Below the pieces are notes generated by a model that did not search any database, was not told the origin of the DNA, and saw only the letters and a program-made list of their open reading frames with translations. The translations under genes were made by a program, and so were the position numbers. Below are positions 23,241 through 34,098 of a stretch of DNA of 57,535 bases, one piece after another (position 1 is the first letter of the stretch; every line of letters starts with the position of its first letter). Source of the DNA: a virus (taxonomy: Duplodnaviria; Caudoviricetes); IMG/VR virus record IMGVR_UViG_3300027741_000074, positions 1 to 57,535 of that record, one strand, 5' to 3'.

Positions 23241-23372
23241 TATAAATACTCTTTCCTTTAGGTAATTCATATTATCTCAATAATTCAGTTAATTGAAATT
23301 TAATTGAATTATTGATTTACATTGAATTACAGTGTTCTGGGAAACTCTTCAGATTTTTCTCCCGTGCTGAAA
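23241..23372. repeat. AT-rich inverted-iteron element, copy 1 (copy 2 at 50254-50385)
   Basis: Shared blocks TATAAATACTCT.TCCTTTAGGTAATTCATATTA, TAATTCAGTT, TGAATTACAGT and TGGGAAACTCTTCAGATTTT. Confidence 0.85.
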
Positions 23373-23508
23373 GTCCTCTCAAATTATTTCTGACTGACAC
23401 TTTAACCCTGAATCCTGTATCCTAAACCCGCGATGCGAACCGTGCGTCTGCGTCTGCGCGAGTGCTTAAATCTGCTAGATAACTGTTAGATCTAACATAA
23501 TACTAACA

Positions 23509-23538
23509 GAAAAGGCACCACTTTCGTGATGCCTTTTC
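23509..23538 (-). terminator. Intrinsic terminator with GAAA tetraloop
   Basis: The - strand reads GAAAAGGCATCAC-GAAA-GTGGTGCCTTTTC, downstream of ORF 23585-23812. Confidence 0.7.
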
Positions 23539-23584
23539 GCTGATTCCTGTATCTTGCTACAGGATTAAGGGTACAGGGTGCAGG

Positions 23585-23812
23585 TTACGCGCTTTTCGCG
23601 TCGTTATAGCGTAACCGTTTGCGATCCAGTAGCTTCTGACGGTTTGTCAAGTAGTAATTTCGCTGATAATTGCGATTTTTTTCTTGCTTTTCAGGATTTA
23701 ACTCCGCTTCAAGCTCCCTTTTTCGGCGCAAATCGCCCTTTTTGGCTTCATAATACGCCTTCTGGTACTCTTTGCGAGCCTCTTTGTTCCTATCGTAGTA
23801 GCTTTTGTCCAT
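23585..23812 (-). CDS. Small basic helical protein (YY..N.E repeats, nucleic-acid-binding-like)
   Basis: MDKSYYDRNKEARKEYQKAYYEAKK...; has a promoter upstream and a terminator downstream. Confidence 0.6.
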   Translation of the reverse strand: MDKSYYDRNKEARKEYQKAYYEAKKGDLRRKRELEAELNPEKQEKNRNYQRNYYLTNRQKLLDRKRLRYNDAKSA

Positions 23813-23864: not shown

Positions 23865-24114
23865 CCTCAATTATTTTTTTCTCACGTAGTTACCTATCGG
23901 TACCGCCCCTGCAAAAAACATGCCACCCCCACCCGTAGCCTGTACCCTGATTCCTGCATCTTGTGCCTGATTCCGATGACGGATACAGGATACAGGGTTC
24001 TTGCTGCATGATCCATGCGCGGGGCGAGGACGGGGCTATTCCCTAGTCTATGAAGGGTGACGCTAGTTAAGTTACCTAACTAACAAACAAACAAACACAC
24101 AAACACACAAACGT

Positions 24115-24624
24115 ATGAAAGCAAACAAAGCAAACAAAGCAAACAAAGCAAACAAAGCAAACAAAGCAAACAAAGCAAACAAAGCAAACAAAGCAAACAA
24201 AGCAAACAAAGCAAACAAAGTAAATAGATATGCAAAGGTGGACTTCTCATCACTTCTCCCACTTATGGCGGGAGTGTGGGAAAGAGAAACGAGTTTGATG
24301 CAAGCGTTCCTTGCGATGTGGAATAAGCAGAAAGATAAGTCGGCTCCGTTAGAATTCCGAGAAGTCTTCTGTGCTTTCGCGCTAGCCAAGGGCTATTGTG
24401 ATAAGTGGGCAGGTGCTGTTGCCCGCGATGCTGATAGAGAATTGTTCGGTATCCGTGGCGTAAGATCCGACAAGGGCAAGCCGAAGGACAAGCCAAAGGC
24501 GGACAAGCCAAAGGCGGACAAGCCTGCGAGTGGCAAGGTTACGCCGCAACAGCTTGCTCACATGGCGAAGGCATTAGATCAAGAAGGCATCGACACCCTC
24601 ATCGGTCTTCTCGTCGCAATGTAA
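24115..24624 (+). CDS. First early-region gene; basic protein with an N-terminal (KAN)11 repeat
   Basis: 169 aa with an A/C-rich leader and internal DKPKA repeats. Confidence 0.65.
   Translation: MKANKANKANKANKANKANKANKANKANKANKANKVNRYAKVDFSSLLPLMAGVWERETSLMQAFLAMWNKQKDKSAPLEFREVFCAFALAKGYCDKWAGAVARDADRELFGIRGVRSDKGKPKDKPKADKPKADKPASGKVTPQQLAHMAKALDQEGIDTLIGLLVAM
24118..24216 (+). repeat. Tandem repeat (AAAGCAAAC)x11
   Basis: Eleven perfect 9-bp units counted directly, followed by a degenerate AAAGTAAAT. Confidence 0.95.
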
Positions 24625-24690
24625 CCTGAATCCTGTAACCTGAATCCTGTAACCTGTAACCTGTAACCTGAATCCGTAATCCTGCATCCT
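24625..24690 (+). repeat. Heptamer array CCTG(A/T/C)A(T/A)
   Basis: CCTGAAT CCTGTAA CCTGAAT CCTGTAA CCTGTAA CCTGTAA CCTGAAT CCGTAAT CCTGCAT. Confidence 0.9.
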
Positions 24691-24776
24691 TAGTTAGGTT
24701 GACTAACTAAGGATGCTGATTGCCTGCTGCTCTTAGTTAGGTAACTAACTAAGGGCATAAGGCAGTTAGTAAACTG
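24684..24776 (+). repeat. Intergenic hairpin unit 1 (hairpins A+B+C)
   Basis: A: GCATCCTTAGTTAG-gttga-CTAACTAAGGATGC. B: TGATTGCCT-gc-TGCTCTTAGTTAG-gtaa-CTAACTAAGGGCA-ta-AGGCAGTTA. C: GCAGTT-agta-AACTGC. Confidence 0.9.
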
Positions 24777-24786
24777 CTATTAAAAT

Positions 24787-25005
24787 ATGAAAACAAAAAT
24801 GAATCCACCTCACTATGAGGTAGCTAGAGGTGCTTCTACCTACGGGATAGAGTACCTAATCCAAGAGGGTATGTTCGACTTCTCAAGAAGAAGCATACCC
24901 AAGAAGTTCAAGGGTCGTAAGTCTGCTGAGCGAGAGGCACGTAAGTACGCTGGTGCTTGGGTCGAAGCGGGTATGCGTCCGTATAGACGTTGGGAGGGAT
25001 ACTGA
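24787..25005 (+). CDS. Small early hypothetical protein
   Basis: 72 aa; its TGA stop is the first 3 nt of hairpin B in unit 2. Confidence 0.7.
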   Translation: MKTKMNPPHYEVARGASTYGIEYLIQEGMFDFSRRSIPKKFKGRKSAEREARKYAGAWVEAGMRPYRRWEGY

Positions 25006-25066
25006 TTGCCCGTTGCTCTTATTCCGCTCCAACGGAATAAGGGCATAGGGCAGTTAGTAACCTGCA
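25003..25066 (+). repeat. Intergenic hairpin unit 2 (B+C)
   Basis: TGATTGCCC-gt-TGCTCTTATTCCG-ctccaa-CGGAATAAGGGCA-ta-GGGCAGTTA. Confidence 0.9.
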
Positions 25067-25073
25067 ACATAAC

Positions 25074-25241
25074 ATGACAACAAATAGAATAGACAACGCA
25101 ATCAAATACCTCATGTCTCGCAATCCAAAGGCATTGCTAGACATGACAACCCCAACCCCAATCCTCGGTCGCCAGATCGTGCTGTGGCTACCTAAGAAGG
25201 TATCCAGTCTGGCATTCGACTTGCCGCCTCTCAAGCGGTGA
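25074..25241 (+). CDS. Small early hypothetical protein (55 aa, MTTNRIDNAIKYLMSRNPK...)
   Basis: Hand-translated; fills the space between units 2 and 3, and its TGA stop starts unit 3. Confidence 0.65.
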   Translation: MTTNRIDNAIKYLMSRNPKALLDMTTPTPILGRQIVLWLPKKVSSLAFDLPPLKR

Positions 25242-25303
25242 TTGCCCGTTGCTCTTAGTTAGCTCACCTAACTAAGGGCATAGGACAGTTCATGTTGGAC
25301 TGC
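25239..25303 (+). repeat. Intergenic hairpin unit 3 (B+C)
   Basis: TGATTGCCC-gt-TGCTCTTAGTTAG-ctcac-CTAACTAAGGGCA-ta-GGACAGTTCA. Confidence 0.9.
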
Positions 25304-25327
25304 AACTAAACCATAATAAATAAAAAT

Positions 25328-25564
25328 ATGAAAAACAAAGAATGTAGTTTACGACAACTCATTATTGAATCCCTGACAGATGCCCTTGCAAAGGGGAAAT
25401 GCGAATGGGAAGCTGCGTTCCCTGAGGGCTTACCCATTGATGTACCCATTGATGACAAGGGTTATATCCAATACTCACGGATTCCAAGGTCATTTGTCGA
25501 AAAGCAAAACGACGAAACCCTGTTTCGTCTTTATACGGCCAACTGCTGTTTAGCTTTTCGCTGA
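25328..25564 (+). CDS. Small early hypothetical protein
   Basis: 78 aa between units 3 and 4, with an A-rich leader. Confidence 0.7.
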   Translation: MKNKECSLRQLIIESLTDALAKGKCEWEAAFPEGLPIDVPIDDKGYIQYSRIPRSFVEKQNDETLFRLYTANCCLAFR

Positions 25565-25569
25565 ACCCT

Positions 25570-25668
25570 GTATCCTTAGTTAGTCAACCTAACTAAGGAT
25601 ACTGATTGCCTGCTGCTCTTAGTTAGGTAACTAACTAACTAAGGGCACAAGGCAGTTATGAAGACTGC
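25570..25668 (+). repeat. Intergenic hairpin unit 4 (A+B+C)
   Basis: A: GTATCCTTAGTTAG-tcaac-CTAACTAAGGATAC. B: TGATTGCCT-gc-TGCTCTTAGTTAG-gtaactaa-CTAACTAAGGGCA-ca-AGGCAGTTA. Confidence 0.9.
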
Positions 25669-25695
25669 AACTAAACCATAAATACAAATAGAAAT

Positions 25696-26817
25696 ATGAA
25701 AACAAGAGCACAGATAGAAATCACACACGATGACATCGAAGGTGATGTCATCGACATTATCAATGAAGCGATCTACGAAGCGCGGGGAATCCGCGTCTCG
25801 CTTGACGCTTTCTTATTCAATAGCAAGACTCGCTTGCTATCTCACTCATTGGAAGTCCGTGACAACTGCGGTTCCATAAGCAGTTACTGCTTCCATGAGC
25901 ATGTGAAGCTCTCATACCGAGGGTTGCCGATTACTCTTCACCTACCGCCAGTCATGTCAGAAGGTAGACAGGTAGATTATTACGCCACAGATCCACAGTC
26001 TTTAGTTGACTATGCCCGTTGGGCTAACGTCGTGTTACCCTTCAACCCTTTAGACGAGAAGAGCGGCCTTCGGTTTGTCTCGCGTCATACCACAAGCGTT
26101 TACAGTTCCGACAATCACGCTAGGTTCACTGACCCAAAGCGCATTGTCTCTTGCGTCAACGACTTGATGAAGCACCTAAATAGAGAAGCCTTGAGTCAGC
26201 TCGTCACTAACCCCATGCTTGCTCGCATCGAGTCCGCGATTGCCAATCAAGGTTATCATTGTGAGTTCATCTCCGACGATGTTACCATCTCAGAGGTCTA
26301 CTACAACGAGAGCAGCACGACGAACAAGTTCGTTAGCTGCATGGCAGGCAAGTCTGCTGCATGGTTTGAGATCTACGATGATCTTCAATCACATGACCGT
26401 CTGACGATGGTTCGCCTAGTCAATGGTAGCGGCGAGTTTAAGGGTCGCGCCTTGTGCTGGAAAGGTAGTAATCCAGATGACTTGTATCTCGATAGGCTCT
26501 ACGTTCCTGAGTCCAACGGCGTGCAGCTCGTCGATGCGTTAGATGCTTTCAAGAAGTTCTGCGCTGAGAATAACATCCGCAAGACTACGTTCAGCAAGAC
26601 TGCTGAGTCCATCGGCTTAGAGTACAAGCCGATCTCCATTGAGGTGCCGCAACGTCTCAACTTCTACGATTACTTCCCGTATGCTGATTCCATGTATCGG
26701 TTCTGTTCCGATGGCAAGCTACGCAACCACTCGAACTATCCTTCAGGTGTGTATCTTGTATCGGAGTTGCGTTGTACTGACGGCACCGTCGAAGGTAACG
26801 ACGATCAAGATGTTTAA
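25696..26817 (+). CDS. Conserved phage protein with SCM...GRALxW...DRLY motifs (function unknown)
   Basis: FVSCMAGK, GRALCW, YLDRLY and FPYADS motifs, which I recall from phage early genes next to M28 peptidases. Confidence 0.55.
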   Translation: MKTRAQIEITHDDIEGDVIDIINEAIYEARGIRVSLDAFLFNSKTRLLSHSLEVRDNCGSISSYCFHEHVKLSYRGLPITLHLPPVMSEGRQVDYYATDPQSLVDYARWANVVLPFNPLDEKSGLRFVSRHTTSVYSSDNHARFTDPKRIVSCVNDLMKHLNREALSQLVTNPMLARIESAIANQGYHCEFISDDVTISEVYYNESSTTNKFVSCMAGKSAAWFEIYDDLQSHDRLTMVRLVNGSGEFKGRALCWKGSNPDDLYLDRLYVPESNGVQLVDALDAFKKFCAENNIRKTTFSKTAESIGLEYKPISIEVPQRLNFYDYFPYADSMYRFCSDGKLRNHSNYPSGVYLVSELRCTDGTVEGNDDQDV

Positions 26818-26830
26818 CAGAATAACCAAT

Positions 26831-27847
26831 ATGAAAATCAATACACAACTATTACTCGATGTCTTCGCAATCCAAAATCCATCACGCAATGTTGCGTGTA
26901 ACAATGAGGCAATGCGTGTCATCCAATCCCTGATTCCTGAATCCTGCACCGTGGTTCGGTGTGCTGGCAACATGATCGTTCGCAAAGGTGACACGTCCAA
27001 GATCCATCCGTTCTTCGTTGCGCACATGGATCAGGTACATGACTATGTGCCGTTCATGCGGCTCAGCATCGACAACAATATCCTGTCAGCGTATGACGGC
27101 AACGGCGCGCAATGCGGGACGGGCGGTGACGACAAGTGTGGCATCTATCTAGCACTCGAAATGCTACATCGTTTGCCCACTGTATCCTGTGTCTTCGTCC
27201 GTGACGAGGAGGTCGGTTGCCTAGGCTCGGCTATCGTGCCGATGGAGTGGTTCGCCAATGCGGCCTTTGTCCTGCAAGCTGACCGCAACAATCGTACCTT
27301 CGACATCATCCGCGATACTAACGGTATGTGCTGCGCTAGTGACGACTTCATGGATGCGCTGTTCGACCTGCCTGTTGCATCGAAGCACGGAGAGGATACA
27401 GGTAGCATCACTGACATTGGCGAGCTAGCAAGACGCAAGCTGCACGTCTCTTGTGTCAACATCTCATCAGGCTACCACCGCCCGCATCAGTCAAAGGAGA
27501 TCGTCAACCTTATCGAGTTGGCTATTGCTTGTGAGCTAGCCTTGCAGGCCGCGACTAACTACGGACATAAGCAGTGGTTGCACACCGCTACTAGCTCGAA
27601 CAATAACTATGGATACGAGAGCCACTTCAAGAAGTACAGTCGCTTCGATGACTTCGACAATGATTATCTAGCCTCTGATGATGTAACCGAAGACGTGTTC
27701 GAGCTTACGCCAGAACGCGAGTCGCTTATCAGTATGCTCGAAGATTTAGGTTATGACCGCCACTTCGATTTACTGGAGGCGTACGACACCGACGAGTTGA
27801 TCAAGTGGGTAGAAGGAGAGACCAGAAGGGGGACAACCTTAGTCTAA
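26831..27847 (+). CDS. M28/M20-family zinc peptidase
   Basis: Metal-ligand motifs AHMD, GGDDKCG, DEEVG, QADR and GYHRPH. Start moved to ATG 26831. Confidence 0.85.
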   Translation: MKINTQLLLDVFAIQNPSRNVACNNEAMRVIQSLIPESCTVVRCAGNMIVRKGDTSKIHPFFVAHMDQVHDYVPFMRLSIDNNILSAYDGNGAQCGTGGDDKCGIYLALEMLHRLPTVSCVFVRDEEVGCLGSAIVPMEWFANAAFVLQADRNNRTFDIIRDTNGMCCASDDFMDALFDLPVASKHGEDTGSITDIGELARRKLHVSCVNISSGYHRPHQSKEIVNLIELAIACELALQAATNYGHKQWLHTATSSNNNYGYESHFKKYSRFDDFDNDYLASDDVTEDVFELTPERESLISMLEDLGYDRHFDLLEAYDTDELIKWVEGETRRGTTLV

Positions 27848-27898
27848 TGACAAACCAATGCGTAGCTTACCGCATAGTTGGAGCACAACACAAACACA
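27847..27898 (+). repeat. 52-bp direct repeat, copy 1 (identical copy at 28235-28286)
   Basis: ATGACAAACCAATGCGTAGCTTACCGCATAGTTGGAGCACAACACAAACACA. Confidence 0.95.
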
Positions 27899-27913
27899 TA
27901 ACACAACAAACAT

Positions 27914-28222
27914 ATGATATACATTGACCAAAAATTCACAATCTGGGAGCGTTTCTCAATCGAGGACGAAAACAAAGAAGCACTTGAGTCTTTTCTGAAA
28001 GAGAATCCTCAAGCCTCAAGCCTCGACATTTACGATTGGGCGCACGAACAAGGTTTAGATCCTCATTGCGAAATCTTGGAAGGCACTCAAGAATCACTTG
28101 ATTCACAAGACAACGACGGCCAAGCAACTCTTGAGATTACCCAAGATCGAAAACCTTTGTGGAATAATAGCCCCGAATCGTGCTTCCCTACGGATTTCAC
28201 GATATGCGGAACAGACATCTAA
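27914..28222 (+). CDS. Small acidic early protein
   Basis: 102 aa, flanked by the two 52-bp repeats. Confidence 0.7.
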   Translation: MIYIDQKFTIWERFSIEDENKEALESFLKENPQASSLDIYDWAHEQGLDPHCEILEGTQESLDSQDNDGQATLEITQDRKPLWNNSPESCFPTDFTICGTDI

Positions 28223-28234
28223 CAAGTCATAAAT

Positions 28235-28286
28235 ATGACAAACCAATGCGTAGCTTACCGCATAGTTGGAGCACAACACAAACACA
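28235..28286 (+). repeat. 52-bp direct repeat, copy 2
   Basis: Identical to 27847-27898. Confidence 0.95.
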
Positions 28287-28302
28287 CAACATAACTAAAC
28301 CA

Positions 28303-28482
28303 ATGAGACTTAAAGTATTCAAGAAAAAACTTACAGGCTATTACATCCTCAAAGAAATCGCCATCCTTAAAGGTTTCTGGGACGACATCAAACAAGAGGC
28401 AGTGATACCAGAAGGTTACACGGTAGAGACCGACGGTATCTTATGGTCGATCAGACTCAGTAGCGACGGGGAGCAAGGTTAG
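28303..28482 (+). CDS. Small early hypothetical protein (59 aa, MRLKVFKKK...)
   Basis: Start moved to the ATG after the repeated leader. Confidence 0.6.
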   Translation: MRLKVFKKKLTGYYILKEIAILKGFWDDIKQEAVIPEGYTVETDGILWSIRLSSDGEQG

Positions 28483-28847: not shown

Positions 28848-29942
28848 ATGACAACGACAAACACTGCTATTAACTCCATCAAACCATCCGAACTCTTGCC
28901 TCTTGCGGAAGCGGCAAGCATGATCGACCGCTTCCTTATGATCGTAGGGTCAGGCGGTGCAGGCAAGACCTCAATGGTCTGCAATGTCCTCGGCCCTGCA
29001 ATGGGACGTGAGGTATGGGAAGTCAACCTCAACGGACAAGGCCCACAAGAAACGACAGGCTACCTTGTGCCTGACTCCGTCACGAGGGATGGCTGGTTCT
29101 CCGCTCCTGAAATCTGGCCTACGCTAGATCGAGTCGGTGATCGGCCTGTCCTCCTGTTCCTCGATGAGGTCAATGACTACGACTCGCAAGTCAGAGCCTT
29201 GCTTCGTAGCCTGTACCCTGCATCTGGCAAGCGGAAGATTGGTTCCCATACCTTAGGCACTAACGTCTTCGTTGTGTGTGCCACTAACCGACGTTGCGAT
29301 GGTACTCGTTCAGCGGTAGAGGATGCCCCGTTCACTGAACGCTGTATCAAAGTCACGCTTGAGCCTAACGTCAGCGACTGGCTCGACTGGTACGACACGA
29401 ACCCCAAGCTCACCGCTAGTGGTTCTCATGTGCCCTCGTTCCTCCGCTTCGGTACTACAGGCGGCGATGGTCTCGACCACTTCAACCCGCCTGTCGTCAT
29501 GCCGTATGACGGAGCACCGCATCCTTGTCCTCGTACATGGGAGGCAGTCGCATTGCTTGAGCCGATCCGTACTACGGCACGAGACATCTACCGCAAAGCA
29601 GTCAAAGGTTGCATCGGTGACCGTGCAGCGTCTGCGTTCTTCGGGTTCCTGCAACACGTTGACAAGTTGCCTGACATCGCCGCCCTTCGTGCCAATGCTG
29701 ACACGTTCCAAGTGCCTGACGATCCTGCCAGTCAGTTCGCCCTTGTGTCGGCTTGTTTGAGCGGTGCAACGAGGGGCGTGAAGGACATACCGATTGCCGT
29801 GCATAGCGGTGGGTTCGACTGGCTTGTTACCCTACTGCTCAAGTGCAGAGGTGACATCCGTGAGTTCGGTGCACGCTCCGCTGAACGTAGAGGCATCCCA
29901 CTCAGCGAGCATCCTAAATCCCATGCCTTGATCTTAGGCTAA
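28848..29942 (+). CDS. MoxR/dynein-like AAA+ ATPase
   Basis: Walker A GSGGAGKT, Walker B LLFLDE, sensor ATN, and PCPRTWE. Confidence 0.85.
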   Translation: MTTTNTAINSIKPSELLPLAEAASMIDRFLMIVGSGGAGKTSMVCNVLGPAMGREVWEVNLNGQGPQETTGYLVPDSVTRDGWFSAPEIWPTLDRVGDRPVLLFLDEVNDYDSQVRALLRSLYPASGKRKIGSHTLGTNVFVVCATNRRCDGTRSAVEDAPFTERCIKVTLEPNVSDWLDWYDTNPKLTASGSHVPSFLRFGTTGGDGLDHFNPPVVMPYDGAPHPCPRTWEAVALLEPIRTTARDIYRKAVKGCIGDRAASAFFGFLQHVDKLPDIAALRANADTFQVPDDPASQFALVSACLSGATRGVKDIPIAVHSGGFDWLVTLLLKCRGDIREFGARSAERRGIPLSEHPKSHALILG

Positions 29943-29949
29943 ATGGATC

Positions 29950-29971
29950 TGCGTAGCTTACCGCATAGTTG
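29950..29971 (+). repeat. Third copy of the core motif TGCGTAGCTTACCGCATAGTTG
   Basis: 22-nt exact match to the core of the 52-bp repeat; intergenic. Confidence 0.9.
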
Positions 29972-30010
29972 AAGCGTTCATTAACAACACAACAAACTAG
30001 ATACAATACT

Positions 30011-31119: not shown

Positions 31120-32586
31120 ATGAAATCGAATACAATAGATCCAACATCGTTCCCTTCGGAGCATCCACTTGCCGTTGCCATGCGTAACGTCAGCCGTCAC
31201 TGGTTCCTTGCATACAGCAAGCTCATGTCGATGGAGTGGAAGTGGTCCGACTCAATCCCATACGGCGCGACTGATGGTCGCTACCTGCTACTCAACAAAG
31301 CAGGTATCGACAAGCTATGCCGCCAGCCTAACGCATCAGGACTGATCGCATTCCTGCTAGTGCACGAGTCCCTTCATGCCTTGTTAGGTCACGGCTGGAG
31401 GCTAGCCAAGATGGCTGACTTGCATCGTGCCAACGTCGCCGCTGACTACGTCATCAACGCGATGATCGCAATGCGTAACCGTGAGTTGAAGCGTGAGGTA
31501 TTCCCCTTCATCGAGGGCGTGCTGCTTGACGAAGTCTTGTCTGGCGACAAGTCAGTTGAGCAACTCTATCGTGAACTGAGTAAGCCACAACCTAAAGAAG
31601 AACCGAAACCTGAAGTTAACCCCAAGCCATCACAGCCAAAGCCCGACGAGCAAGACGATGATGACGGTGAGCAACCTGAAGTTAACCCCAAGCCATCACA
31701 GCCAAAGCCCGACAAGCAGGATGGTGACAAGCAAGACGGTGACGGCAGCGACAAGCAAGACAGCAAGCCTGACGAGCAAGACGGTGATAGTGGCGACAAG
31801 CAAGACAGCAAGCCTGACGAGCAAGACGGTGATAGTGGCGACAAGCAAGACGGCGATGACCTCTCCGACTTCGTAGGTACTGGCTCGCTAGATAACCTTG
31901 AGCCAGAAGCCGAAGACGGAGAGACACAAGCCGAAGCAATCGACAAGATCGAAGAGGACAATGATCGTATCCTAATAGCTGACGAGATTGATAGGAGGCA
32001 ACAGTCTGACAACGGCATGACAGGTCAGCGCATCGGTAGTCAGCGCGGACATGGCTCGATTTTAGGTTGGCCTGACCTGCTACGTCAGTGGCTCACAAGC
32101 AAGTCACGTTGCGGATGGGACGCGCCGTTCAACGCGCCGATCTATTCCACAACAGGAGTTGTCGGTGCAGGCAGACGCAACAAGAAGGCTGGCGAGATCG
32201 TACTGGTACTGGATACGTCAGGCTCAATCGGTCAGCATACCTACGACCGTTTCCTGCAAGAGGCACAAGCCGTACTCGACGAACTCAAACCTGAACGCTT
32301 GCACCTGTTGTCGGTATCCCATGTCGTAGCTGACGTTGTAACACTGCAAGAGGGTGATGCCGTACCGAACAAGCTGAAGGGCGGGGGCGGTACTGCATTC
32401 AAGCCAGCCTTTGATTGGGTCAGAGATAACGTGGACGACATGGACGTGATGGTCTACCTCACCGACGGATGGTCATGTGACCTGCAAACGCTACCGCAAG
32501 TGGAGTTCCCCCTGCTTTGGCTCACGACACAACGTGCTGTCGCTGACTTTAAAGTGGGCGAGGCTCTTGAGATCACCGAACTATAA
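31120..32586 (+). CDS. DUF2201-type metallopeptidase + VWA domain protein
   Basis: ATDG, HESLH (HExxH), N.AADY.IN, an acidic linker, then MIDAS DTSGS, GGGT and LTDG. Confidence 0.85.
   Translation: MKSNTIDPTSFPSEHPLAVAMRNVSRHWFLAYSKLMSMEWKWSDSIPYGATDGRYLLLNKAGIDKLCRQPNASGLIAFLLVHESLHALLGHGWRLAKMADLHRANVAADYVINAMIAMRNRELKREVFPFIEGVLLDEVLSGDKSVEQLYRELSKPQPKEEPKPEVNPKPSQPKPDEQDDDDGEQPEVNPKPSQPKPDKQDGDKQDGDGSDKQDSKPDEQDGDSGDKQDSKPDEQDGDSGDKQDGDDLSDFVGTGSLDNLEPEAEDGETQAEAIDKIEEDNDRILIADEIDRRQQSDNGMTGQRIGSQRGHGSILGWPDLLRQWLTSKSRCGWDAPFNAPIYSTTGVVGAGRRNKKAGEIVLVLDTSGSIGQHTYDRFLQEAQAVLDELKPERLHLLSVSHVVADVVTLQEGDAVPNKLKGGGGTAFKPAFDWVRDNVDDMDVMVYLTDGWSCDLQTLPQVEFPLLWLTTQRAVADFKVGEALEITEL
31607..31860 (+). 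repeat. In-frame duplications in the acidic linker
   Basis: PEVNPKPSQPKPD x2 and DKQDSKPDEQDGDSG x2 (45-bp unit). Confidence 0.85.
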
Positions 32587-33818: not shown

Positions 33819-34003
33819 CCACAAAGAAACTAGACTCCTTTGTGTCTTCGGTTGCTAGCAAGAAGAACATCAAGTCGCCACACCAGAAGTTCGCAGAGAA
33901 AAGCCAGATGCTACGTTGGTTTGGTGAACGCAGTGTGAAGGAGCTCAAGGCAATGCAGTCAGCACTACTCGCAATGCAAGCAGCTAGAGGAGGAGCAAAG
34001 TAA
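33815..34003 (+). CDS. Small basic hypothetical protein
   Basis: 62 aa, ATGA-coupled to the upstream gene. Confidence 0.55.
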   Translation: MTTKKLDSFVSSVASKKNIKSPHQKFAEKSQMLRWFGERSVKELKAMQSALLAMQAARGGAK

Positions 34004-34098
34004 TGGGTATGCTATTGCTCCTCCTAATCGGAGGCTGGTTCCTATGGATTGTAGCCTGCTTCCTACTTGAGATCATCCATTACTTAATGAATGGTTGA
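34003..34098 (+). CDS. 31-aa membrane peptide (MGMLLLLLIGGWFLWIVACFLLEIIHYLMNG)
   Basis: TAATG-coupled, single hydrophobic helix; overlaps the 3' end of the giant gene. Confidence 0.45.
   Translation: MGMLLLLLIGGWFLWIVACFLLEIIHYLMNG

Follow-up and report, generated by a model that had tools for sequence, protein, structure and literature searches.

The present study concerns a family of long, interrupted RNA hairpins separating small genes in the genome of an uncultured virus of the Caudoviricetes. The stretch of DNA analysed, hereafter the window, is the whole IMG/VR virus record IMGVR_UViG_3300027741_000074 (57,535 bases, rated 100% complete), and the DNA of this phage is present in freshwater metagenome runs; a look-up of RNA runs for positions 23900-27000 returned none. 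A block of + strand genes begins with open reading frame (ORF) A and continues through the small ORFs B, C and D to the large ORF E, and one hairpin (H1 to H4) occupies each of the four consecutive junctions between these genes (Table 1). This arrangement had been claimed in a sequence-only reading of the window, and pattern matching, folding and a model search have now confirmed both the number and the positions of the copies.

Table 1. Features of the hairpin array and associated elements. Positions are those of the window unless another locus is named; MFE, minimum free energy in kcal/mol.
Feature	Position	Strand	Remarks
Hairpin H1	24714-24771	+	Junction ORF A/ORF B; MFE -37.9, z -8.6; model score 86.9 bits
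Hairpin H2	25000-25059	+	Junction ORF B/ORF C; MFE -41.5, z -10.5; model score 86.7 bits
Hairpin H3	25235-25295	+	Junction ORF C/ORF D; MFE -26.4, z -4.6; model score 79.5 bits
Hairpin H4	25603-25658	+	Junction ORF D/ORF E; MFE -32.4, z -7.5; model score 80.5 bits
Short 14-bp hairpin h1	24684-24716	+	Directly 5' of H1; MFE -23.2, z -8.8; exact pattern match; partial model match, 19.9 bits
Short 14-bp hairpin h2	25570-25602	+	Directly 5' of H4; MFE -19.7, z -7.0
7-nt repeat run (CCTGTAA / CCTGAAT type)	24620-24684	+	From ORF A stop to h1; spacing 14
Segment AACTGC	24772-24777	+	Complements the lower-stem 3' arm of H1; equivalents at 25062-25065, 25299-25302 and 25664-25668
ORF A, 169 aa	24115-24624	+	First gene of the + strand block; N-terminal KAN repeats
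ORF B, 72 aa	24787-25005	+	No homologue in any compared array; ends in the TGA of H2
ORF C, 55 aa	25074-25241	+	Sole small gene common to 7 arrays; ends in the TGA of H3
ORF D, 78 aa	25328-25564	+	No homologue in any compared array
ORF E, 373 aa	25696-26817	+	First large gene past the array; common to L016, L011, L020 and L023
Giant ORF, 4229 aa	34080-46769	-	Conserved at 35-76% identity in relatives
Pseudoknot-like leader (relatives)	L074 1-90, 365-455; L022 5375-5460; L008 4700-4780; L083 185-230, 2720-2765; L095 6100-6145		Outside the window

Every copy in the window adopts an RNA fold in which a lower stem of 12 bp and an upper stem of 13 bp are separated by a 2x2 internal loop and the upper stem is closed by an apical loop of 4, 6, 5 and 8 nt in H1, H2, H3 and H4, respectively; the fixed internal loop and the variable loops of 4-8 nt described earlier are thus borne out. 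The 5' half, TGATTGCCYGYTGCTCTTA, was matched at 24717, 25003, 25239 and 25603, on the + strand only (four matches compared with 0.03 expected), and none of 200 shuffled sequences folded as well as the corresponding hairpin in any of the four cases. The reverse strand of the hairpins folds worse by 3.6-15 kcal/mol because the wobble pairs turn into A-C mismatches. A first covariance model, built from the four window copies and run over the whole 57.5 kb with filters off, recovered only H1-H4 at full length (79.5-86.9 bits), the other matches in the window being weaker reverse-strand images of the same hairpins and partial matches on three short hairpins. The helix, originally given as about 22 bp, had to be corrected to about 25-26 bp plus the loop, with a total length of 56-61 nt, and the sequence frame proposed for the four copies holds in general, except that H3 departs from it at one 3' base, breaking one pair of the lower stem. 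The double use of TGA as a stop codon in two copies also holds: TGA 25003-25005 in H2 ends ORF B and starts at +3 from the first paired base, and TGA 25239-25241 in H3 ends ORF C and starts at +4. The helices of H1-H4 are followed by the 3' tails AGTAAAC, AGTAACC, CATGTTG and ATGAAGA, respectively. The first 29 nt (5') of H4 are identical to those of H1. Contigs from four DNA sets break at 24723-24745 and 25609-25631, the positions of this H1/H4 repeat, and one set with partial coverage leaves parts of the array uncovered; no inference is drawn from either observation.

Pairing is retained while the sequence changes. Within the window, the alignment supports the earlier observations that three pairs of the upper stem are altered on both sides in copy 2, that a T-A pair is replaced with C-G (in copies 2 and 3), and that three positions (columns 8-62, 10-60 and 22-49) are G-U or U-G in 4/4 copies. 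A wider alignment comprised 27 copies from 12 records with 26 modelled pairs, and slid controls were obtained by moving the 3' partners 1-3 columns. In this alignment, 87.4% of the pair cells were standard pairs compared with 31-51% in the slid controls, changes on both sides were observed in 16/26 pairs, and the covariation score was 0.403 compared with 0.166 +/- 0.013 for shuffled alignments, none of 500 shuffles reaching the observed value. Similar results were obtained with a 16-copy set (89.9% paired, 12/26 pairs compensatory, score 0.400). The lower stem is swapped as a block between genomes (UUGCC/GGCAG, UCGCU/AGCGG and UAGCG/CGCUG), and copies are more alike within one genome than across genomes. 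At several positions the bases themselves are conserved: a U-G wobble (columns 11-62) is invariant (27/27), the adjoining G-C and C-G pairs are present in 26/27, the U-A pair at the base of the upper stem in 27/27, and the CUUA/UAAG box in 22-27 of 27 copies. Over all pair cells, 82 G-U compared with 10 A-C combinations were counted; therefore, the single-stranded form of the + strand is the selected one, and the simplest reading is that this form is RNA. The best matches lie on the coding strand in all 27 copies. Together, the covariation and the wobble bias uphold the earlier claim of an element selected as the + strand single strand, and the covariation is borne out in homologues.

The placement of the 27 copies with respect to the ORFs confirmed that the location is strictly intercistronic. 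An upstream ORF (ATG start, at least 30 aa) ends between -60 and +14 of the first paired base in 22/27 copies, and a downstream ORF (at least 30 aa) starts 15-92 nt past the helix in every copy. The stop codon starts between -5 and +4 of the first paired base in 15/27 copies (TGA in 12 and TAA in three), and the helix base therefore supplies or abuts the stop codon. The leaders after the hairpins are A-rich and lack a Shine-Dalgarno sequence, and such leaders are typical of Bacteroidota. A stimulator of read-through or frameshifting was also considered, as the distance of about 8 nt from the TGA to the upper stem, with the lower stem unwound, fits such an element; this candidate was rejected, as the reading frame beyond the TGA is closed 6-33 codons later, at varied places, and never joins the next ORF.

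The family was followed in relatives found through the ATPase encoded downstream of the array, which yielded 16 related IMG/VR loci and 30 loci on metagenome contigs; 22 of the latter were searched, three IMG/VR duplicates and five short loci or loci without upstream sequence being left out. A second covariance model, built from 16 copies, was used on 15 whole virus records and the 22 metagenome loci, and the family was found in 8/15 and 4/22 of these, respectively, the copy number among relatives ranging from 0 to 5 (G000, 4; G001, 1; G002, 2; G005, 2-3; G006, 3-4; G008, 4-5; G009, 3; G012, 1). The copies always cluster on the same strand within 1-3 kb upstream of the ATPase, in one 1-3-kb region per genome, and no copy occurs elsewhere in these 57-66-kb records. 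The flanking genes of relatives with 0-5 copies are 55-99% identical.

In the bacterial genomes and unrelated viral contigs sampled outside this lineage, no full-length copy was found. A first scan of viral contigs with the two-arm pattern of the window returned 0 stretches, and ORF E, when used to look for relatives, found none. In bacterial and archaeal genomes, the upper-stem pattern matched 46 stretches, which is about the chance expectation; none was full-length, and the best was a partial match of 33.5 bits compared with 60-79 bits for members. In unrelated viral contigs, the pattern with a gap of 5-7 (blind to class A) matched 23 stretches with 0 model matches, and the pattern with a gap of 4-6 matched 30 stretches, of which the 8 new ones contained members only in the known relative G002. 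One contig scoring 29.1 bits (L131) proved on inspection to carry a plain perfect hairpin and was rejected as a member. Rfam gave 0 matches at the gathering score in the window and 0 at E <= 1 in four related loci, and a search of the open literature yielded no description of this hairpin family or of such arrays in N4-like phages. The hairpin is thus an uncatalogued, lineage-specific structured RNA family.

The genes between the hairpins differ among relatives, as the sequence-only reading had anticipated. In an all-against-all ORF comparison covering eight arrays, only ORF A (5 arrays) and ORF C (7 arrays) were widely common, and ORF B, ORF D and most of the ORFs between hairpins in L016 and L017 were unique to one genome. 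One gene, of 159 aa, is flanked by two hairpins in L017 but is found outside the array, adjoining the ATPase, in L016. Past the last hairpin, two alternative pairs of large genes occur; the position of ORF E is taken by an unrelated gene of about 440 aa in L008, L012, L022 and L024. Array alignments showed homology largely confined to the hairpins: the window aligns with L074 and L083 at the hairpins only, with L022 also into the leader and the start of ORF C, and with L008 over ORF C. The array of L022 reads A, h+H, C, H, large gene, and that of the window A, h+H, B, H, C, H, D, h+H, E, such that the window holds two extra [ORF + hairpin] units, and in L074 a post-hairpin leader of about 90 nt is present twice, flanking one such unit. 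The insertions and deletions between relatives end in the hairpins. The claim that no integrase is involved also stood, as the tyrosine integrase family PF00589 had no match in six frames of the whole record, with a control positive in 14/14 genomes.

Herein, we propose that the hairpin family would act in cis on a single early, polycistronic transcript of the first + strand genes. Each hairpin fills one gap, from the upstream stop codon or near it to 15-92 nt before the next start, and would serve as a signal for both processing and stability: RNase III of the host is predicted to cut at the loop and would split the early message into single-gene mRNAs, and each upstream mRNA would retain the upper stem-loop at its 3' end as a shield against exonucleases. 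The copies would double as recombination joints, such that [gene + hairpin] units might be gained, lost and exchanged by homologous crossover without a site-specific recombinase. We give this combination of RNase III cleavage and recombination joint about an even chance. It is favoured by the helix of about 26 bp with a central mismatched loop and by the precedent of phage T7. In 26/27 copies, a 2x2 or 3x2 loop is separated from the base by 11-12 bp and from the apical loop by 13-14 bp, which corresponds structurally to the central internal loop of RNase III substrates, the sole fully paired copy being L095_a; and the 12 + 13 bp around the 2x2 loop in the window reach the helix length of about 20-22 bp or more at which RNase III acts. 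According to PMC3867540, RNase III ideally acts on a helix of 22 bp that is cut in the middle; where a loop or mismatch occupies the target, the cut is limited to one strand, and the 3' hairpin that is left stabilises the product. An RNase III gene was searched for in the phage genome and was not found. As to the second function, the hairpins would act as crossover joints because no other sequence is conserved between small genes that are otherwise unrelated, and we infer that recombination between copies caused the cassette differences.

Several points weigh against this proposal. First, the 27 copies, many of them paralogues or close orthologues of one another, represent about five independent sequence classes, and the counts given above therefore overstate the number of independent events. 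Second, 7/15 related virus records carry no hairpin, including four in which the equivalent region is covered and the flanking genes are 75-91% identical to those of the window; the hairpin is therefore dispensable. Third, the sequence and not only the pairing is conserved, in the CUUA/UAAG of the upper stem and in the G-C, C-G and invariant U-G pairs of the lower stem, and since RNase III substrates are usually degenerate, this conservation hints at a more sequence-specific reader. Fourth, the proximal and distal box rules, as presented in PMC3867540, are known for the E. coli enzyme only and may not be those of the host. Fifth, the role of the copies as homologous crossover joints for the gain and loss of small genes is deduced from the end points of the differences.

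The strongest alternative, which we regard as possible though clearly less probable, is that the hairpins act as RNA without RNase III, either as blocks to 3' exonucleases or insulators resembling REP elements, or as terminators or attenuators that do not depend on a U-tract and grade expression along the array. Very stable + strand hairpins directly after stop codons would fit both forms. The PeSL stem-loops of T4-type phages, which lie in the same kind of genomic setting, terminate transcription effectively (PMC2839356), and of the 61 termination sites mapped in the N4-like phage LUZ7, only 14 are predicted to be intrinsic (PMC9163698). However, no U-run follows any copy in the window, and a scan for U-tract terminators left the hairpins unflagged, bar one spurious 5-bp match on the 5' arm of H3 (25234-25250). 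Moreover, a terminator at each junction without a promoter would silence the distal genes, including large conserved ones, and a scan limited to the sigma-70 consensus found no sigma-70-like + strand promoter between 24100 and 25700. A simple exonuclease block, in turn, needs neither the fixed central loop nor the invariant wobble.

A second alternative is that a sequence-specific protein of phage or host, e.g. an endoribonuclease or a translational repressor, uses the hairpin as its operator or cleavage site and reads the U-G wobble, a G-A mismatch in the loop and the CUUA/UAAG box. The conserved positions described above, namely the U-G and U-A pairs in all copies, the near-invariant G-C and C-G pairs and the box, are those expected of such a reader, and the homologues of ORF A offer a possible partner: they open the arrays of L012, L016, L022 and L024 and altogether those of five genomes with at least two hairpins and a covered array start, and they were not found in four hairpin-less relatives. 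This correlation is weak because the genomes compared are closely related and L008 does not conform to it, and ORF A had no Pfam or PHROG match; no candidate protein with a recognisable RNA-binding or nuclease domain was seen, and the conserved pairs could equally reflect proximal and distal box preferences of the host RNase III. We consider this alternative unlikely. The beginning of ORF A (24115-24230) consists of eleven 9-nt repeats encoding KAN KAN..., and a KPKADKPKAD stretch occurs further on.

A third alternative places the element at the DNA level, either as an N4-type hairpin promoter used by an RNA polymerase of the virion or the phage, or as a folded single-strand site resembling attC; given the distant link to N4 set out below, the promoter was a serious candidate. 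No GenBank phage matched window positions 24000-27000 at the DNA level. The ATPase (28848-29942) matched 393 phage records by tblastn, each at less than 60% identity and with top matches at 23-27%, and Pseudomonas phage Pa2 (Schitoviridae) was among the best; an ATPase profile search of bacterial and archaeal genomes gave no relative. The order of ATPase, one gene and a VWA-type gene is common to the window and Pa2, and the product of 31120-32586 (488 aa) is 27% identical to Pa2 gp35 over 244 residues (E 3e-13). In view of the ATPase matches and the shared gene order, we read this uncultured freshwater phage as a distant relative of the N4-like phages. The record also encodes a DNA polymerase, an exonuclease, tail proteins, a terminase and a 4229-aa protein without a detectable family. 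No Pfam, PHROG or atlas match was obtained for the 4229-aa protein, and its residues 1000-2799 had no tblastn match; its location and length would suit an N4-like virion RNA polymerase. It is likewise from position and from synteny with an N4-like phage that the array genes may be called early or host-takeover genes.

The gene order shared with the Schitoviridae and the 4229-aa gene where a virion polymerase is expected would thus suit a DNA-level element, as would the cassette-like turnover of genes. The early promoters of N4 and LUZ7 are DNA hairpins repeated before early genes (PMC4496689, PMC9163698), and such repetition in distantly related phages resembles the present array. However, these promoters (N4 P1-P3 and the early and middle promoters of LUZ7) are described in the same sources as short DNA hairpins on the template strand, with stems of 4-7 bp and a conserved 3-nt loop, compared with 25 bp and variable loops of 4-8 nt here, and the wobble pairs favour the non-template strand 82 to 10. 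In addition, no polymerase domain was detected in the 4229-aa protein when one was looked for, and another short motif with a 3-nt loop in the same operon fits the promoter definition better. For a site resembling attC, neither an integrase nor core sites of the attC type were seen in the sequence. The DNA-level reading therefore appears quite improbable to us. Finally, a selfish palindromic repeat resembling a MITE and without function for the phage might account for the patchy distribution, the variable copy number and the likeness of copies within a genome, and is nevertheless highly improbable, since every copy is co-oriented with transcription, strictly intercistronic and confined to a single 1-3-kb region, compensatory change keeps the pairing with a + strand wobble bias, and no full-length copy was found in the sampled bacterial genomes or unrelated viral contigs.

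Additional elements adjoin the hairpins. The short hairpins h1 and h2, which the sequence-only reading had passed over, carry in their stems the same 9-nt arms as the neighbouring upper stems of H1 and H4, and the unit h2+H4 is an 89% copy of h1+H1 across 75 nt. Runs and inverted pairs of the CCTGTAA / CCTGAAT type, in addition to the run before h1, are present in a control region at 23395-23429, 23531-23588, 23927-23999 and 26917-26951, and heptamer runs also precede hairpins or ORFs in relatives. On the 3' side, a segment 8-20 nt past each hairpin is a Watson-Crick version of the 5' arm of the lower stem; it is present in nearly all 27 tails and tracks the lower-stem class in relatives. A duplex test gave -6.6 kcal/mol for matched partners, -5.1 kcal/mol for partners of another class and -4.1 +/- 1.9 kcal/mol for shuffled ones, a modest difference in a test in which three rows were mis-parsed. 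These downstream segments could form an alternative small hairpin with the 3' arm or could be partial copies of the 5' arm, and they may represent the 5' hairpin of the next mRNA or a recombination scar. A more elaborate possibility, which we hold to be doubtful, is that the hairpin is an RNA device of three parts: the 5' arm, which includes the stop codon, the 3' arm, and the Watson-Crick copy of the former that lies downstream. A sequence-specific factor would read it through the invariant U-G wobble; a terminating ribosome or a cut would free the 3' arm to pair downstream, thereby giving the next cistron a 5' hairpin, and promoterless genes would plug in by homologous exchange, in the manner of integrase-free, integron-like cassettes of N4-like phages.

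Other repeated or structured elements were noticed in the window and its relatives. A second intergenic motif has a 22-nt core identical in three + strand copies (27859-27880, 28247-28268 and 29950-29971; 0 expected), with flanks at about 27846-27917, 28234-28306 and 29940-30000, and is 84-100% conserved with several copies per genome in all relatives compared. It consists of a short stem with one bulged C, a 3-nt loop and a conserved tail, and its DNA fold is weak alone (-5.8 to -6.2 kcal/mol). According to PMC4496689 and PMC9163698, the promoters of N4 and LUZ7 are defined by a short stem, a conserved 3-nt loop and a start about 13-15 nt downstream, and by this definition the second motif would suit the role of a phage-polymerase promoter better than the large hairpins do. 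In relatives, a leader resembling an H-type pseudoknot lies past the last hairpin, upstream of the gene of about 440 aa; it has a 5-bp stem, its loop pairs with a segment beyond an A-rich stretch, and both pairings are compensatory across five genomes. It had no Rfam match at E <= 1 and may be a new cis-regulatory RNA. A divergent intergenic region of 0.9 kb contains, at 23262-23330, an AT-rich inverted repeat of 31 nt with a spacer of 7 nt; it is kept in relatives, with blastn matches in both orientations, and may be an operator or an origin. A strong hairpin at 33985-34030 (GGAGGAGCAA...TTGCTCCTCC), at the boundary between the + strand block and the giant gene on the - strand, is probably a bidirectional terminator.

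Several known systems share features with the present family. The RNase III sites of phage T7 are named R0.3, R0.5, R1, R1.1 and R1.3. The T7 early precursor, a polycistronic RNA of about 7000 nt, has five RNase III signals according to the description in PMC3867540. Both families are intercistronic hairpins of about two helical turns with a central internal loop, in T7 on an early polycistronic mRNA and here presumably so, and the products expected in both cases are single-gene mRNAs with a protective 3' hairpin. In contrast to the T7 signals, the hairpins described here show no sequence homology to them, are near-identical repeats within a genome, often hold the stop codon in the helix base and are conserved in sequence at several helix positions, and their cleavage is predicted. 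The analogy with T7 drawn earlier thus stands for the architecture, i.e. helix length and central loop, and does not extend to homology. The PeSL elements of T4-type phages are a repeated intergenic motif in a hypervariable region of small ORFans, in which indels and replacements between close relatives end in the motif and recombination between copies has been proposed (PMC2839356, PMC4122927); they likewise span the upstream stop to the next start and have G-T pairs in the stem (PMC2839356). However, PeSL elements are defined in that source by a strong sigma-70-like promoter and a terminator stem-loop (PMC2839356), whereas neither a sigma-70-like promoter site nor a U-tract was found for the present hairpins, which also differ in having a far longer helix that is interrupted by a central internal loop and covaries clearly.

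More distant parallels are found in bacteria. REP and BIME sequences are intercistronic stabiliser hairpins, and the Correia elements of Neisseria are cut by RNase III; like the present family, they are repeated palindromes in transcribed gaps, and they influence the stability of mRNA segments or undergo processing as double-stranded RNA, but they occur genome-wide and in both orientations, whereas the present family is limited to one phage operon and one orientation. The attC sites of integrons are likewise structured, imperfect palindromes 3' of each promoterless cassette, with structure conserved over sequence, whereas there is here no evidence of site-specific excision and, as noted above, neither integrase nor core sites.

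Taken together, the family appears to combine processing hairpins in the style of T7 with shuffling joints like those of the T4-type PeSL, and represents a known phage device in a new lineage. The design recurs in T7, in T4-type phages and here: repeated hairpins punctuate the first small genes and mark the points of exchange. If cleavage by RNase III is true, each hairpin would constitute a compact natural insulator with a built-in stop codon, and the invariant wobble is a clear mutational target for identifying what reads the helix. In genome annotation, the hairpins can conveniently be used to recognise the hypervariable array of accessory genes in this clade.

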